Shown piece by piece: positions 43,600 to 63,133 of a stretch of DNA of 64,000 bases. The stretch lies in assembly GCF_988243305.1 (NCBI RefSeq), contig NZ_OZ547136.1; one strand, given 5' to 3'. The position numbers and the translations under genes were made by a program. Each line of letters begins with the position of its first letter. The stretch's first letter is position 1. The notes under the pieces were generated by a model that was not told where the DNA came from, made no database searches, and saw only the letters and a program-made list of their open reading frames with translations.

Positions 43600-43754
43600 G
43601 TCACTCACTCTTTTTTGAATATCCATCCCTGGCACGCTTTTATCGTCTTTGCTTTACCGCCAGGGCGTCGGCCCCAAGTATAAAGCAGATAAAAACAAAA
43701 ACACCATTGCGCAGGCAATGGTGTTTAATCGTCATTGAGGACTGATGGTTATGA

Positions 43755-55070: not shown

Positions 55071-55446
55071 AATTCACACCCTTATAAGGCTGGGAAAGCA
55101 GACGGAATCAAAACGAAACGCAACGTGCGAGATCGACTAACTGCACCATATTCTCCTGAAATATGAAGATATACTGAAAACAAATAAGCGACTTAGGACA
55201 GTTTCAATCTACGCTACTGTTCTTCAGAAGAGTATAGCCCATCGTAATTATTTTTCGGTGACAGCGAATATCGTATGTTTTTTCATGTTCATACATTTTT
55301 ATTAGGGGATTTATGACTGTTTAACTAAGTGTGGTTAATTGCGTAGTTAATTTGACTTAAGTAAGCATGATTACTAGTGGGATATTTCAAGAGGGTAGCA
55401 AGCCGGTGGGTAAACCACCGGCTTGTCACAAAGTATGAATGGGAGT

Positions 55447-56766
55447 TTAACTTCCCCAACGACTTTGCAGATAGCTAACCGCTTGTTGAGTCTGCGGTTT
55501 ATTCAGATAGTCCTCACGGAACAAGATTGTGCCGCTAATTTCTGGCACGGCATCGTTAAGATCGAGCTGTTTTTTCAGTTCCGGTACGCCGCCGTTAATC
55601 ATCCAGTCTGGCTCTATCTTTGAAGGTTCACCCACTTTATAGAAGGCGATACCGATATACAGGCGGGTCCTGGTCGGTTTAACGACATCTGCCCACCATT
55701 TTGCCAAAACGTCATAACGTGCGGCACTCCGTGAGAACGGCCAGTAAATTTGGGGAGCAATGTAATCCAGCAATCCTTGTTCCACCCATCGACGGGTGTC
55801 AGCGTAGGATTCGTCATAGGCTGCCGCGCCTCGGGTATCGGAACCGAGCGGATCGTGTGATCGGTTACGCCACACGCCTGCCGGGCTAACGCCAAATTCG
55901 ACTTCCGGCTTAATGCTTTTAATGGTGTGCGATACCTTCGCAATTAACTGCTGAGTATTGTTGCGCCGCCAGTTTGCTTTTGACGCAAATGCGCCTCCGT
56001 ATTTGCGGTACGTTTCGTTATCATTTAGCCGTGAACCCGGTGACTCAGTATAGAAATAGTCGTCAAACTGCACGCCATCTACCGGATAGCGGGAAACCAC
56101 TTCCGCGACTATTGATGTGATCCAGTCCTGAACTTCAGGGATGCCCGGGTCGAGGACAAAGCGATCGCCGGACGTTCTGATCCAGTCGCGGTGTTGCACA
56201 TAGACACTCGCTGGTTGTTGAGACAGAGTGCTATTCAGTTCCCTGATAGTACCGGGCTTCGTATTAACCGATACGCGATAGGGGTTAAACCAGGCGTGTA
56301 CTTTCATCCCACGCTTGTGGGCTTCGTCGAGCATGAATTGCAGCGGATCGTAACCCGGATTTTCACCAATCTTACCGGTCATAAGATCGGACCACGGCAA
56401 AATTTTCGATGGCCACAGGGCGGTACCGTCTGGCTTGACCTGGAAAAAGACCGTGTTTATGCCGAGACGTTGCAGATGATCCAGTTTGTCGATCATCGCC
56501 TGTTGTTGTACACGGGCCCGGCTGGTGGGGTTACTAATGTTAACCGAGGAAACCGGTGGCCAGTCGAGGCGAGACACCGTGGCCAGCCAGATGCCACGCA
56601 TCGGTTGTGACGATTGTTGCGTCGTGGCTGGTGGCTTTGAACCCGCTGGTGGTGTCACCATGGACTCTGGAGGCGTGCTTTTACAACTACACAGTAAAAG
56701 TGCCAGTGCAACCAGTATCGCTGGTCTTCTAATCGCTAATTTCTCGTTTCGGGAGCAGATATCCAT
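55447..56766 (-). CDS. yddW: Glycoside hydrolase-like lipoprotein
   Basis: 439 aa; lipobox LLCSC near N-terminus; GH-like TIM-barrel pattern; position as in K-12. Confidence 0.85.
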   Translation of the reverse strand: MDICSRNEKLAIRRPAILVALALLLCSCKSTPPESMVTPPAGSKPPATTQQSSQPMRGIWLATVSRLDWPPVSSVNISNPTSRARVQQQAMIDKLDHLQRLGINTVFFQVKPDGTALWPSKILPWSDLMTGKIGENPGYDPLQFMLDEAHKRGMKVHAWFNPYRVSVNTKPGTIRELNSTLSQQPASVYVQHRDWIRTSGDRFVLDPGIPEVQDWITSIVAEVVSRYPVDGVQFDDYFYTESPGSRLNDNETYRKYGGAFASKANWRRNNTQQLIAKVSHTIKSIKPEVEFGVSPAGVWRNRSHDPLGSDTRGAAAYDESYADTRRWVEQGLLDYIAPQIYWPFSRSAARYDVLAKWWADVVKPTRTRLYIGIAFYKVGEPSKIEPDWMINGGVPELKKQLDLNDAVPEISGTILFREDYLNKPQTQQAVSYLQSRWGS

Positions 56767-56896
56767 ATGTGCTGGTTTCCGGTAAACAGATGTGCGCTCA
56801 TTCTCGTACTTATCCCGGTTAAGTCAATACGACAGCAAGCACGAAAAAGGGAGCGATGAATTATCGCTCCCTTATCTTATAACCATTCAGACATGG

Positions 56897-58432
56897 TTAG
56901 TGTTTCTTGTCATTCATCACAATATAGTGTGGTGAACGTGCACGCGGGTGCAGGAAGAAGTGACCTTTTGGTGCGTTCTGACTGTTGATTGGCTCCAGAG
57001 TGACGCCGGTATTCCCTTTGCCTTTACGATCATGAACAGCATAGAGAATAAAGGGCAGGGCAAGTACCACCAGGAAACTCACGACCAGTAATTCAACATA
57101 CATATCAGTAGAGTCACCCTGGATGTTATCCGGCGGCAGGAAGGAAACAATAAACGCCATAATTGAAGTCAGCAGACCGACAACAGCCACGACCAGTTTC
57201 ACCCCTTTACCACCAGGGATATTAAATGTGCGTTTTAAGTCAGGATGTTTAAGAACCAACACAATGTAGCCAATAAACAGCATGAAATAAGCACACAGAT
57301 AAATCACCACCGTCAGCGCCAGTGCGATCAGGAAGGACATGTTGTTACCGCCACCGGTATTGGTGAGGATGATCAACGCGATAGAAGTAATCACCAGCTG
57401 CGAAATGACCAGCGTTACCGGTACGCCATTTTTGTTCATTTTAGCGAATGCCGCTGGCAGCAGGTTTTTCTGCGCTGTGACATACATCCCGCGAGAAGGA
57501 CCAACAATCCAGGAGGCGATTTCCGCCAGAACACCCAGTAACAGCAGTGCGGAGATCACGCGAACCGTCCACTCAATTTCCGGTGCCACATGGGACATCA
57601 GAACGGTAAAGGTTTGCATTACCCCAGCGGAGAGGTTGATTTCATTACCCGGAATGACCATCGCAATAGACAAACCGCCAACAGAGCTTAAGCAGATTGC
57701 CGCCACCATCAGCAGTAACATAGCCAGTGGATAGTCGCGCCCGGGGTTGCTCATTTCATTGACGTGGGTTGCGGAAGCTTCAACGCCCATATAACTCAAA
57801 ATGAAGGCAACAAATACAACCAGGGTGCCCACTTTAGAGAAGTCTGGGAAGAAGGTCTTCGCATCCATTTCGATAGCAACGGGGGCACCGGAATGCAGAT
57901 AAATAGCCGCTAATGCGATCAAAATAAATGCAGGTAACAGGATACCGGCGAAGAAGCCAACTTTAGCAATTCGCGCCGTGTATTTCGTGCCACCAAACTG
58001 CGTTAATGCCAGCGCCCAAAGAATGATGAGTGCTGCAATAGTTTTGGTAATAGGGTCTTCATTCAGCGCTGGCCATTTCAGGATGTAGGAGAGTGCCCCT
58101 AACACGAAATAGAGCATCGGAATAAAACCAATGGCGATTTGCAGATAGCCAAATGAGATCGCTGCAAATCCCCATCTCGGCCCCAGAGTATTTGATACCC
58201 AGGCGAAGACACCACCTTCTTCCCAGCCGTCGACGGTGGCCATTTCCGCAGCACAAAGTCCCACGGGAATAAACCATAAAATCCCGCCTAATAGCAGGAA
58301 GAAGACTAATGAAAAGCCCGATGTTGCGAAGGTAGGGTATTCATAAACAGCCATTACCATCGATGCCGTTATGGCAAAAAATCCGAGTAATGTGAGCTGC
58401 TTAGCTTTACCTGTCTGTACTGATGTAGCCAT
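56897..58432 (-). CDS. gadC: Glutamate:GABA antiporter
   Basis: 511 aa APC-family transporter downstream of gadB. Confidence 0.9.
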
Positions 58433-58587
58433 ATTATCCCCCTAAAACGGTATTCCTGTCGGAACCGCACCTGTTTTGTTCTGAAGCGTATTCAGAACAA
58501 TATTTTCCGTTGCTAATGCCAGTGAACAGACTTTGGAAATTGTCCCGAAACGGGTTCGTTTCGGGACACCGTTACCGTTAAACGTTA

Positions 58588-59988
58588 TCAGGTATGTTTA
58601 AAGCTGTTCTGCTGGGCAATACCCTGCAGTTTCGGGTGATCGCTGAGATATTTCAGGGAGGCTTTGTAGTCTTCCAGCAACAGTTCAGCAAAGTCCATTT
58701 CGAAGCCGCGACGACACATAATGCGCATCACCACGATGTCGGTGGCTTCACCGCCGAGAGTGAAGGCCGGAACCTGCCAGCCGCGCAGACGCAGACGTTC
58801 AGAGAGGTCGTACAGGGTGTATCCCGGATCTTCACCATCTTTCAGTTTGAAGCAAACCGCCGGGATGCCTTCGTCCGGGCGACCGGTACAGATGAACTCA
58901 TACGGCCCCAGTTTGGCGATTTCATCCGCCAGATAAGCGGCAACCTGGTAAGAGGCGTTCTGTACTTTGGTATAGCCTTCACGACCGAGGCGCAGGAATT
59001 CATAGTACTGTGCAATTACCTGACCCGCCGGGCGGGAGAAGTTGATGGCGAAAGTCCCAATCTGACCACCGAGGTAGTCAACGTTGAACACCAGTTCCTG
59101 CGGCAGCGCTTCTTCATCACGCCAGATAACCCAGCCGCAGCCCAGCGGAGCCAGACCGAATTTATGGCCTGAAGCACTGATCGATTTCACACGCGGCAGG
59201 CGGAAGTCCCAGACGATATCCGGGGCGACGAACGGTGCCAGGAAGCCACCGCTGGCGGCGTCGATGTGCATGTCGATGTCGATACCGGTGTCGGCCTGGA
59301 ATTTATCCAGCGCATCGTGCAGCGGTTGCGGGAACTCATAGTTACCGGTGTAGGTCACGCCGAAAGTCGGCACCACGCCGATGGTGTTTTCGTCGCAGGC
59401 TTCAATCATGCGTTTCGGGTCCATAAACAACTGACCGGGGCGCATAGGGATCTCACGCAGCTCCACATCCCAGTAGCGGGCGAATTTATGCCAGCAGATT
59501 TGCACCGGACCGCACACCAGGTTTGGTTTATCCGTTGGTTTGCCTGCAGCTTCCATACGCTTGCGCCAACGCCATTTCATCGCCATCCCGCCGAGCATGC
59601 AGGCCTCGGAAGAACCAATGGTGTTGGTGCCAACGGCCTGACCATTTTTCGGCGCAGGCGCATGCCACAGATCGGCAACCATATTTACGCAACGCAGGTC
59701 GATTGCTGCAGATTGCGGATATTCTTCTTTGTCGATCCAGTTTTTGTTAATGGATAAATCCATCAACTTGTGGACATTTTCGTCGTCCCAGGTCTGGCAG
59801 AAAGTGGCCAGGTTCTGACGAGCGTTGCCATCAAGATATAATTCGTCATTGATAATCTGGAATGCGACATCATCGCGCATTTCGTGCAGCGGAAATCGTT
59901 TTGATTCTGCGATAGTGGAAATAGACTTCGCACCAAAACGTGAATCGAGTAGTTCCGACCTTAAATCCGTTACTTGCTTCTTATCCAT
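58588..59988 (-). CDS. gadB: Glutamate decarboxylase beta
   Basis: 466 aa from [28 protein letters not shown]; PLP-binding region ([10 protein letters not shown]); ORF track has a 23-codon extension. Confidence 0.9.
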
Positions 59989-60067
59989 TTTAAACTCCTT
60001 AAAATGATTGGATCGCATTAAAAAAGTAGGATTTATCGATAAAGTAAGCAAGTGCAAAGGACTCGTG

Positions 60068-60087
60068 TTTAAATAACAAAATCCTAA
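60068..60087 (-). promoter_or_regulatory. GAD box (GadE binding site) upstream of gadB
   Basis: Reverse complement reads TTAGGATTTTGTTATTTAAA, the 20-bp gad box consensus, ~80 nt upstream of the gadB ATG. Confidence 0.7.
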
Positions 60088-60349
60088 TGTTATTTATCGT
60101 GAGATATTATGCGAATAATATTTTATCATTGAAAATCAATACATTATTGAATTCTTGGGTGGTGGCAAGGTGTTTTATGCTGTTATTTTTATGCACTTTC
60201 TACGCCTCCTGAATTATCACGTAAAAATCAGACCTTAAAATATCACTATTAGTACTTGGTTATTATTTTGAACGCATTTATAAAATTATTACATAAAAAT
60301 AGCGAATATTGATAAAATCCCCGCCAACGATGTGTTGACGGGGCTGTTA

Positions 60350-63133
60350 TTATTTTGGCAATAATACTCCGGTATAAGTATTTACCGGATGAGAAAGATA
60401 TTGTTTAACGGTAGTGTTAACATTCTCTACCGTCATTTGTTTCAACAATTGCTCCTGCTCAGTCCATGCTGCAGGATCGTCATATTGAATAAGACTATTT
60501 ACAATGGTGTTCGCTAATTGTTGAACGCTACGCTGTTGGATATCGAGGCTGCGCTGAACGTTTTGCTGGTATTCGTTCAGTTCTTGCTCACTGATCCCTT
60601 TAGCCAGACGTTTAACCATCACTTCATTCGCTAACGTTAACAGTTCATCATGTCGTTCCGGTTGACAAGTAAAAGCCAGCAAATGACTGATATCTTTGGC
60701 CTGAGGATCAACCGAGAGGCGAGAAGAAACGCTGTATGCTCCAGATGCCTGTTCACGAATATTAACGCGTAGATCTTTTGCCAGTGCGACGTTAAAAGCA
60801 TCGAGCGCCATACGCGTCTCCAGATTTACAGGTGTCCGGGAATCATAACGCTTCCACTGTGAAACCTGTGCCACAGGTTCATTTTGTTCTTTTACAGCAA
60901 CCGATGCGTTGTCCGTCGCGCGAGTTAATGGTTTACCTGCGGCTAATGGCGAATCAGAGTGTTTGATTGATCCTAAGTAACGCGTAATTAACGGCAGGAG
61001 TTTGTCTTCTGCGACATTACCGACAATGACAAACGTGATATCCGCTGGAGATGAAAACAACTGGCGATCGGCAGCCAGCGCATCTGCGGCAGTAAACTGT
61101 GCAATCTGATTTTCTTGCAGTAATTTCGTGCGGTCATCAGCATAGCGCGTCTCATACATCTGCTGGGCGAATTTCTCCGCTGGACGCTGGTCGAGCGTTT
61201 TCAACGCCTGAATTTGAGCATTTTGTAGCGATGCCCAAATATTATCGTTAATCGTGCTGTGGGTGATTCGCTGGTTAATCAACTGGAAACCAGGTTCAGG
61301 GTTATTAGTCCGCGTGCTAACAGAGAGCAATGTATTCATGCCACTGACTTTACTGCTCATGGTTACCGAGTTTTCCGCACTCCAGCGTTTCAGGCTGGAA
61401 GAGGAGAGTTCACCAACGCCGCTTCCGCTTACTGCTTTATTTGCCAGCGCGATAAGTGATTTTTGCTGCGCAGGGAAACTTAAATCGCCTTTATTAGATA
61501 CGGCAGTAATTTGTAGTTTTTGCTCTTCACCCGCGGATTTTGCCAGAATAACCCTGGCACCATTGGAAAGTGTTAATGATGTCAGATTCTCAGCCAGCGT
61601 TTCTTTGCTGCTAATTTCCGCCTGTGTGTCAGCGTCTACTGTTAACGATAAATTTCTGCCTGGGAAGCTGTAAGCCGCCAGCTTTTTGTTGGCGTACTCT
61701 TTTTCCAGCGCCAGGATAGCCGCAGGAGACAATGCGTTTTTGGCAGCAACCTCATTGTTTACCATTTGCTCCCAAAATGCATCCTGGTTCTTTCTTAACT
61801 GCTGCCATTTTTCCGCCAGACTTTGCACGGTAATTTGCTGCCACAGACGTTTCGAAAGTTGATATGTCTCTTCCGGCGACAAGAACGGCGTATTATTTAA
61901 TGAGCTGGATGCCAGGCGACTGGTCAGCATACGTAAATCACGTTCAGCTTGCTGATCAACCGCATTTTTCAGCCAGGTGAGGCGGGTAGATTTGACATCA
62001 TCGAGTTCTTCAGCAGAAAAACCATGCTGATCAATAGTTACCAACTCTGCCATTAATGCATTCGCAGCATCCTGCATATTATCGTCTCGTGCATTTACAC
62101 GGAAAAACAGCGACTGATAATCGGGTGCAATTTTAACGCTGCGCGCAGTGCCGCCAGAAATAGTCTTCAACTCGCCCGACTGTATGCGTTCCTGCAGACG
62201 CTGATTGAACAGCTGAACCAACATGCTCCATTCAGCTTGTTCGATAAAGCTTTGCTCATCGCTCACTTGCACCATTGGCAGGCGATAATAGAGTGCGATG
62301 CCGTTCACCCGGTTTTCTTTATCATTAATGATATTAAAGCGCAGGTGGTTTTCGGCTTTTGTCGGCCAGACGCGATTTTCAGCTGCTTTGTTAGCCGGAA
62401 GCTTACTTAAATTGTCCTTTATCAGCGCCAGCGCTTCTTTACTATCGATATCGCCGACCACGATAAAGGTCATATTATTTGGTTGATACCAGCGTTGATA
62501 AAATTGGCGCAATTGTGCCGGTGTGACCGTAGCGACAGTATCCATCAGGCCGATAGGTTCACGGTCTAAATTACGGGTATTAGCCAGCAGGAAAGGGCGG
62601 CGCGCCTGAGAGGTGCGCCATTTCGCATCCTGATGGGCACGCCATTCCTCAGTAATTACGCCGCGTTCAGCGTCTACTTCGAGTTTTTCAAAGGTTGCGG
62701 CATTACTCCATTCACTGAAGATTGCCATCACTTGTTGCAGATTTTGTTTCTGCGTAGTCGGCAAACTCACCTGATACACCGTTTCGTCATAGCTGGTATA
62801 GGCATTAACATCGCGACCAAAGCGCAGACCCATCGACTCAAATGTTTCGATGACTTTATTACCCGGCCATGTTTTTGTGCCGTTAAACATCATATGTTCT
62901 ACAAAATGAGCCACGCCGCGCTCATTGTCTCCTTCCTGCAATGAACCCGTATGAATTTGCAGCCATAAATTTACCTGATCCTTTGGTTGAGCATGCGGAT
63001 AAATCATATATCGCAAGCCATTGTCCAGTTGCCCGGTAATTAACTTTTCATCCTGCGGTAAGGCGGCGGCAATCAGTCGCCCGGGGAGCAACAGAGTTGC
63101 CACTAACGTCAGTAAGAAACAGAGGTTTCTCAT
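60350..63133 (-). CDS. pqqL: Periplasmic M16-family zinc peptidase (pitrilysin-like)
   Basis: 927 aa from MRNLCFLLTLVATLLLPGRLIAA; HFVEH inverted zinc-binding motif; ORF track extends 9 codons upstream. Confidence 0.9.
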   Translation of the reverse strand: MRNLCFLLTLVATLLLPGRLIAAALPQDEKLITGQLDNGLRYMIYPHAQPKDQVNLWLQIHTGSLQEGDNERGVAHFVEHMMFNGTKTWPGNKVIETFESMGLRFGRDVNAYTSYDETVYQVSLPTTQKQNLQQVMAIFSEWSNAATFEKLEVDAERGVITEEWRAHQDAKWRTSQARRPFLLANTRNLDREPIGLMDTVATVTPAQLRQFYQRWYQPNNMTFIVVGDIDSKEALALIKDNLSKLPANKAAENRVWPTKAENHLRFNIINDKENRVNGIALYYRLPMVQVSDEQSFIEQAEWSMLVQLFNQRLQERIQSGELKTISGGTARSVKIAPDYQSLFFRVNARDDNMQDAANALMAELVTIDQHGFSAEELDDVKSTRLTWLKNAVDQQAERDLRMLTSRLASSSLNNTPFLSPEETYQLSKRLWQQITVQSLAEKWQQLRKNQDAFWEQMVNNEVAAKNALSPAAILALEKEYANKKLAAYSFPGRNLSLTVDADTQAEISSKETLAENLTSLTLSNGARVILAKSAGEEQKLQITAVSNKGDLSFPAQQKSLIALANKAVSGSGVGELSSSSLKRWSAENSVTMSSKVSGMNTLLSVSTRTNNPEPGFQLINQRITHSTINDNIWASLQNAQIQALKTLDQRPAEKFAQQMYETRYADDRTKLLQENQIAQFTAADALAADRQLFSSPADITFVIVGNVAEDKLLPLITRYLGSIKHSDSPLAAGKPLTRATDNASVAVKEQNEPVAQVSQWKRYDSRTPVNLETRMALDAFNVALAKDLRVNIREQASGAYSVSSRLSVDPQAKDISHLLAFTCQPERHDELLTLANEVMVKRLAKGISEQELNEYQQNVQRSLDIQQRSVQQLANTIVNSLIQYDDPAAWTEQEQLLKQMTVENVNTTVKQYLSHPVNTYTGVLLPK

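Follow-up and report, generated by a model that had tools for sequence, protein, structure and literature searches.

Organization of the gadB-gadC junction

At the core of the principal system with which E. coli and Shigella survive extreme acid are the genes gadB and gadC, which are also a source of bacterial GABA. To our knowledge, the regulation of gadBC has been studied almost wholly at the promoter. In the stretch of DNA analysed here (64,000 nucleotides, referred to as the window), the two genes lie on the minus strand and are separated by a gap of 155 nt. Both the annotated gadB-gadC junctions of 5405 out of 5426 complete E. coli genomes and that of K-12 MG1655 share 99-100% identity with this region. 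The features of the junction are listed in Table 1. At the end of gadB, there are two in-frame tandem stop codons, TGA TAA (58585-58590 of the window), and the Shine-Dalgarno sequence of gadC, AGGGGGA, was found at positions 58437-58443.

Table 1. Features of the gadBC locus in the window, in the order of transcription
Feature	Position	Strand	Description
gadB (glutamate decarboxylase B)	58588-59988	-	Upstream cistron; 466 aa, 100% identical to the K-12 GadB translation
Hairpin 1	58541-58568	-	RNA 5'-UGUCCCGAAACG / CGUUUCGGGACA-3', loop AACC; begins 20 nt past the gadB stop codon
Short tail AUUU	58537-58540	-	Term-seq end 1570594 corresponds to position 58537
A+U-rich spacer and gadC leader	58433-58536	-	From hairpin 1 to the gadC AUG; 58% A+U, C/G 0.8
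Hairpin 2	58476-58500	-	Perfect 10-bp stem, 5-nt loop, inside the gadC leader; RNA UUGUUCUGAA-UACGC-UUCAGAACAA
gadC (glutamate/GABA antiporter)	56897-58432	-	Downstream cistron; RefSeq annotation of the identical E. coli sequence
Terminator hairpin at the operon end	56847-56873	-	After gadC; 11-bp perfect stem, then UUUUUCG; used for internal comparison

The string gtcccgaaacg-ggtt-cgtttcgggac was found exactly at positions 58542-58567 of the window. A sequence-only reading of this DNA had reported it as a perfect palindrome with an 11-bp stem situated between the gadB stop and the gadC start. The string, its coordinates and its location between the two genes were all confirmed, the last by the RefSeq annotation of the identical E. 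coli sequence, but the stem proved to be 12 bp rather than 11 bp long. With the extra pair T58541/A58568, the element, designated hairpin 1, becomes a perfect inverted repeat whose 12-bp stem encloses a 4-nt loop, and seven of the 12 pairs are G-C. The fold of the RNA had a free energy of -20.7 kcal/mol, corresponding to z = -4.4 against dinucleotide shuffles, and hairpin 1 was retained in both the minimum free energy and the centroid folds of the whole 155-nt intergenic region. In first-order Markov simulations of the window, 0.02 perfect stems of at least 12 bp and 0.08 of at least 11 bp were expected per 64 kb. It is therefore apparent that hairpin 1 is far beyond chance.

No annotation was present under hairpin 1 in RefSeq, and a search of positions 56000-61000 on both strands with the covariance models of Rfam 15 gave no match at hairpin 1 up to E = 10. 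A description of hairpin 1 was also not found in the full-text literature searched; early gadBC transcript papers and the De Biase 2012 review lay outside the scope of this search, and an earlier mention is possible. Two known types of element were considered and rejected. Membership of the REP/BIME repeat family was dismissed because, across 5405 E. coli genomes, a 42-nt query around hairpin 1 had one matching site per genome at the median and two at most. An element shared with the gadA paralogue was dismissed as well, the homology of gadA to gadB stopping approximately 4 nt past the stop codon.

Apart from hairpin 1, the window contains other long perfect palindromes at positions 40298-40325, 43699-43726 and 55399-55425, which look like terminators. 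Two of the three have 12-bp stems flanked by an A-run and a T-run (AAAATGGCGC...GCGCCATTTT and AAACACCATTGC...GCAATGGTGTTT) and appear to be bidirectional terminators. The third, whose stem is 11 bp long, overlaps the 3' end of the digH (yddW) ORF (55447-56766, minus strand). The terminator hairpin after gadC gave weak sub-threshold matches to the Rfam families DapZ (E = 1.3) and Plastid-psbA-2 (E = 0.37), which most likely reflect a generic resemblance among terminator hairpins.

The tail of hairpin 1 and a mapped RNA 3' end

The sequence flanking hairpin 1 on its 3' side was examined on the transcribed (minus) strand, where the stem is followed by AUUUCCAAAG. The bases directly after the stem on the gadBC mRNA are AAUUUCC, and the 3' flank AAUUUCCAAAG contains 3 U in 8 with no U-run, as had been noted from the sequence alone. 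A simple consensus terminator scan did not call hairpin 1 because the T-run is missing.

Published Term-seq data were then compared with the locus. Adams et al. (2021, eLife, PMC7815308; Supplementary file 1, sheet M63 0.4) mapped an RNA 3' end to MG1655 position 1570594 on the minus strand, with an average read count of 33,816.8 and with TAACGTTTAACGGTAACGGTGTCCCGAAACGAACCCGTTTCGGGACAATTT and CCAAAGTCTG on its two sides. When the coordinate was checked against NC_000913, this end was found to be the third U past hairpin 1, 4 nt from the last paired base. A transcript 3' end thus maps next to the hairpin, and its absence, which had been named together with stem mutations of no effect as grounds for abandoning a role in RNA stability, processing or partial attenuation, was not observed. 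The end was classed as 'orphan' by its authors because it lies 51 nt past the gadB stop, beyond the 50-bp limit for 'primary' ends (PMC7815308). The same sheet contains the end of the gadC terminator (MG1655 1568900, minus strand) with 70,553 reads (PMC7815308). The reads at the hairpin 1 end were about half those at the gadC terminator end, Term-seq counts being only semi-quantitative, and this ratio suggests that ending at hairpin 1 is partial and not complete. Among the three growth conditions, both ends were called only in M63 glucose and were absent from the two LB sheets. Since the gadC terminator end was likewise missing from LB, the absence of the hairpin 1 end there reflects detection of the operon and not the hairpin 1 site. 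The supplements of TERMITe held no entry for an end at hairpin 1. Taken together, these data indicate that hairpin 1 is a real RNA hairpin and a previously unannotated transcript-end element whose general mechanism is textbook. A 3' end immediately after a hairpin fits termination and trimming alike, and this feature does not discriminate between them.

A serious rival reading, though in our estimation rather unlikely, is that hairpin 1 is a leaky intrinsic (Rho-independent) terminator or attenuator, at which the hairpin and AAUUU release some RNA polymerases and the rest read through to gadC. Hairpin 1 does resemble intrinsic terminators and attenuators in having a stable, GC-containing stem-loop, in having its mapped end among a few following U's (on the last U of the adjacent UUU), and in a partial efficiency, as seen from the roughly twofold lower read count relative to the operon terminator. 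Furthermore, U-poor hairpins may be inefficient terminators with a backup route (Dar and Sorek, PMC6061677). On the other hand, the 7-8-nt U-rich tract of intrinsic terminators is lacking, the tail AAUUUCCA having 3 U in 8, and the tail score (d'Aubenton-Carafa/TransTermHP-style) was -2.2 to -2.7, compared with -4.8 for the gadC terminator. Intrinsic terminators usually release the RNA about 7-9 nt from the stem, whereas the end at hairpin 1 is only 4 nt from it. In addition, the stems of 12-13 bp found here and in other species exceed those of typical terminators.

Rho-dependent intercistronic termination was also considered. According to this explanation, which we regard as improbable, Rho loads on the 155-nt gap when translation initiation at gadC fails, transcription ends further downstream, and the RNA is then trimmed to the hairpin. 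The gap is long and untranslated, and the U-poor type of hairpin is known at Rho-dependent termini (PMC6061677). The gal operon provides a precedent at cistron junctions: it is reported to yield galE, galET and galETK mRNAs, the ends of which are generated by Rho or by RNase E and then processed exonucleolytically (PMC9239205; bioRxiv 10.1101/2024.10.01.616006). However, there is no C>G bias downstream of hairpin 1, the C/G ratio being 0.8 within the gap and close to 1.0 over the initial 200 nt of gadC. Moreover, Supplementary file 2 of PMC7815308 lists no Rho termination region at MG1655 15704xx-15706xx; this is weak evidence against Rho, because the bicyclomycin experiment was carried out in LB at OD 0.5, where the gadBC 3' ends were uncalled.

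Conservation of the hairpin within and beyond Escherichia

An alignment of the intergenic region was constructed from the window, K-12, six divergent E. coli genomes, three cryptic-clade genomes and E. albertii. Substitutions in hairpin 1 clustered in the loop and in the loop-closing pair at the apex. One clade (strain E69) carried a change from A-U to G-U, and E. albertii carried three double compensatory changes, one from U-A to C-G and two from A-U to G-C. The tail AAUUUCC was replaced by AAACUCC in E. albertii and by AAAUUCC and AAUUCC in cryptic clades; the bases just past this variable tail (CCAAAGUCUGUUCACUGGCAUUAGCAA...) were invariant across the alignment. These results suggest that the sequence of hairpin 1 is free to change as long as pairing is kept, and that the U's are not under selection. 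The loss of the U's in E. albertii and their reduction in cryptic clades, next to invariant neighbouring bases, argue against an intrinsic terminator.

The last 100 nt of the gap were 92% identical between E. coli and E. albertii, compared with 74% and 67% identity at the third codon positions of gadB and gadC, respectively. This difference indicates that the gadC leader is under sequence constraint. The constraint on the leader (58433-58536) could represent a site for an sRNA, a protein or an RNase, or translational control.

The gadC leader also contains hairpin 2, which lies on the 3' side of hairpin 1 at a distance of 40 nt, the gadC AUG following after a further 43 nt. Read on the plus strand, hairpin 2 precedes TATTTTCC and was called terminator-like. 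It was weakly conserved, being weakened without compensation in E. albertii and strain E69. As speculation, cleavage might occur between hairpins 1 and 2, so that each product would be capped by a hairpin. This two-hairpin model was set back by the uncompensated changes of hairpin 2 in E. albertii and by the finding that second hairpins were not generally enriched across species; a covarying second hairpin was present in an alignment dominated by Morganellaceae.

In order to survey other species, GadC was used to scan one genome per species, which gave 80 loci; gadB lay directly upstream of gadC in about 66 of these. The 59 gadB-gadC gaps of at least 40 nt were taken for the analysis of hairpins, the loci being not fully independent phylogenetically. 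The most stable local hairpin in the gap had a median z of -3.4 against dinucleotide shuffles; z fell below -2 for 47 of the 59 gaps and below -3 for 32 of them. As a control, the 120 nt upstream of gadB gave a median z of -0.35, with values below -2 at 10 of 61 loci. When gaps with any detectable sequence similarity were grouped by single linkage, the median z was below -2 in 36 of 46 clusters. The core helix had a median length of 13 bp and a median energy of -19 kcal/mol across species, and the median distance from the gadB stop codon to its start was 19 nt (interquartile range 14-30).

The tails of these hairpins bear on intrinsic termination in both directions. At least 5 T in the next 8 nt were present after nine of the 59 hairpins, and canonical terminators were found at the equivalent site in Yersinia rohdei, Serratia sp., Comamonas and Citrobacter sp. 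The T-runs after the equivalent hairpin were CTTTTTTTT in Yersinia rohdei, TTTTTTTA in Comamonas and TTTGTTTC in Citrobacter sp., and such true T-runs in a minority of species favour a terminator. In contrast, the number of T in this 8-nt stretch did not exceed 3 for 39 of the 59 hairpins. As a 'true terminator' control for the U-content of the tail, the best hairpin after gadC was taken, and the two distributions were the same. This control was uninformative because further operon genes follow gadC in many species.

The hairpin sequences differed between genera, and pairing was kept through compensatory changes. Eleven loci were aligned, nine of them belonging to Morganellaceae (Proteus and Providencia) and the other two being L026 and L029, and compensatory double changes were present in 17 of 19 predicted pairs. 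The sense fold was more stable than the antisense fold at 40 loci and the reverse was true at 17 (Wilcoxon p = 5e-4). Such an excess is expected if G-U pairs matter, and it indicates that the element functions within the gadBC message, at the level of RNA and not of DNA. The palindrome might instead be an operator for a dimeric protein or a cruciform, acting on an internal gadC promoter or on DNA transactions. Its perfect symmetry would suit such a role, and the symmetric changes in E. albertii would also have kept a symmetric protein site. Nevertheless, we consider a DNA-level element extremely improbable: the sequences are wholly different between genera with only the pairing potential kept, G-U pairs systematically stabilize the sense over the antisense folds, an RNA 3' end lies at the base of the hairpin, and the sole promoter-like match nearby overlaps the ribosome-binding site and start codon of gadC and is not convincing.

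Co-transcription through the gadB-gadC junction was demonstrated by RT-PCR in Brucella microti (PMC5695133). Related Brucella and Ochrobactrum loci carried 13-bp hairpins at this junction, and it is thus suggested that such hairpins do not block read-through. Hairpins of the hairpin 1 type accordingly lie between co-transcribed cistrons and are conserved as structure. Gaps of 19-37 nt, which leave no room for a hairpin, were found at L016, L018, L020, L053, L061, L063, L071 and L074; this minority, which includes Advenella, Kosakonia and some MAGs, indicates that the element is common and not universal. GadC was 70-81% identical between E. coli and other Proteobacteria, and the adjacent GadB was only 51-64% identical (loci L008-L073); the two proteins may have different histories, or Escherichia GadB may have evolved faster.

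In Buttiauxella (L050:2501, L052:2501 and L054:2501), a strong hairpin with the tail GGAGAGGATT was located 7-11 nt from the gadC start, against the Shine-Dalgarno sequence and away from the gadB stop, which suggests a different, possibly translational use in that genus. We also weighed whether hairpin 1 in E. coli insulates gadC translation from that of gadB, by blocking re-initiation or through the fold of the leader, or whether it is a functionless relic of a terminator that predated the downstream gadC. Both the abutment of the Buttiauxella hairpin on the gadC Shine-Dalgarno sequence and the strong sequence conservation of the gadC leader speak for explanations of this kind, and yet we find them scarcely probable. 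In E. coli, 108 nt separate the hairpin from the gadC start, and the predicted fold shows no pairing between it and the ribosome-binding site. As for a decaying relic, the order of gadB followed by gadC is widespread in the sampled Proteobacteria, and compensatory changes have actively maintained the structure, both of which argue against it.

Hairpin 1 as a candidate protective 3' end of gadB mRNA

Based on these observations, we lean towards the reading that hairpin 1 is a protective stem-loop forming the 3' terminus of a gadB-only mRNA, with some transcripts continuing into gadC. The sequence-only reading had proposed an element for RNA stability or processing, or else a partial attenuator. 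The direction of that proposal fits the mapped 3' end, the weak and unconserved U-tract, the U-poor hairpins elsewhere and the compensatory changes; as between its two halves, our preference is for protection.

A protective hairpin defining the 3' end was ranked first because its anatomy matches a class described in E. coli by Dar and Sorek (2018, NAR, PMC6061677), in which stable, U-poor stem-loops lie directly upstream of precise steady-state 3' ends. Those stem-loops protect the RNA against PNPase and RNase II once a primary end has been formed further downstream (PMC6061677). Like the members of this class, hairpin 1 is stable, has a precise 3' end just downstream, is low in U and has no upstream A-tract. 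The class differs in that its members mark where genes or operons end on Rho-dependent transcripts, with C>G downstream, whereas hairpin 1 lies inside an operon, is read through and has no C>G bias.

In the proposed mechanism, the stable stem-loop folds some 20 nt after the stop codon of gadB, at a site slightly beyond the footprint of the terminating ribosome. A primary 3' end would then arise downstream, most likely by endonucleolytic cleavage in the A+U-rich, unstructured spacer; weak termination at the short U stretch of hairpin 1, or the action of Rho on the untranslated gap, would be alternative primary events. The spacer after hairpin 1 is largely unstructured and is a candidate site of primary cleavage or termination. 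Together with this lack of structure, its base composition (58% A+U, C/G 0.8) weakly favours cleavage over the loading of Rho. PNPase and RNase II would presumably trim the RNA in the 3'-to-5' direction until halted by the base of the stem, which would produce the observed end ...GGGACAAUUU. Transcripts escaping these events would run into gadC and finish at the gadC terminator. The expected result would be a gadB message more abundant and longer-lived than the gadC message, with a presumed effect on the GadB:GadC ratio. An excess of gadB message would match an abundant soluble enzyme to a membrane antiporter.

In the classical intercistronic stabilizers, such as the malE-malF REP and those of the Rhodobacter puf operon and of the pap operon, a hairpin shields the upstream segment from 3' exonucleases and the upstream protein is produced in excess. 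Hairpin 1 is likewise stable and intercistronic, and by analogy it may stabilize the upstream message. Unlike the malE-malF element, hairpin 1 is not a REP sequence; of 5426 E. coli genomes, 5405 carry it as a single copy. In the gal operon, shorter mRNAs of the upstream cistrons are reported to arise from cistron junctions and to give graded expression (PMC9239205; bioRxiv 10.1101/2024.10.01.616006), and the candidate routes for gadBC are the same. The gal operon differs from gadBC, in which the gap between the cistrons is much longer (155 nt) and the stem is perfect and unusually long.

A wider interpretation can be put forward, which we hold to be decidedly unlikely: the hairpins would represent an undescribed class of cis-RNA, conserved in structure only and common to the gadBC operons of Alpha-, Beta- and Gammaproteobacteria and, in the set of loci studied, one Firmicute (Pectinatus), that acts as a tunable valve. 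If this were true, read-through or processing would respond to acid, stationary phase, gadC translation, or a bound protein or sRNA. The valve would set the stoichiometry of decarboxylase to antiporter, and the conserved gadC leader would be its partner element.

What is new here is the connection of a published and unexplained 3' end with a hairpin that is conserved in structure, and not in sequence, across gadBC operons. The advance is incremental; what makes it of interest is how widely and how strongly the structure is conserved. A protective hairpin would account for the 'orphan' 3' end, and hairpin 1 is a simple natural part for tuning expression inside operons. For the acid-resistance system itself, hairpin 1 probably allows the message for the enzyme to be made in excess of that for the transporter. 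A separate gadB message, if it exists, would constitute a post-transcriptional layer that fixes the ratio of enzyme to transporter.
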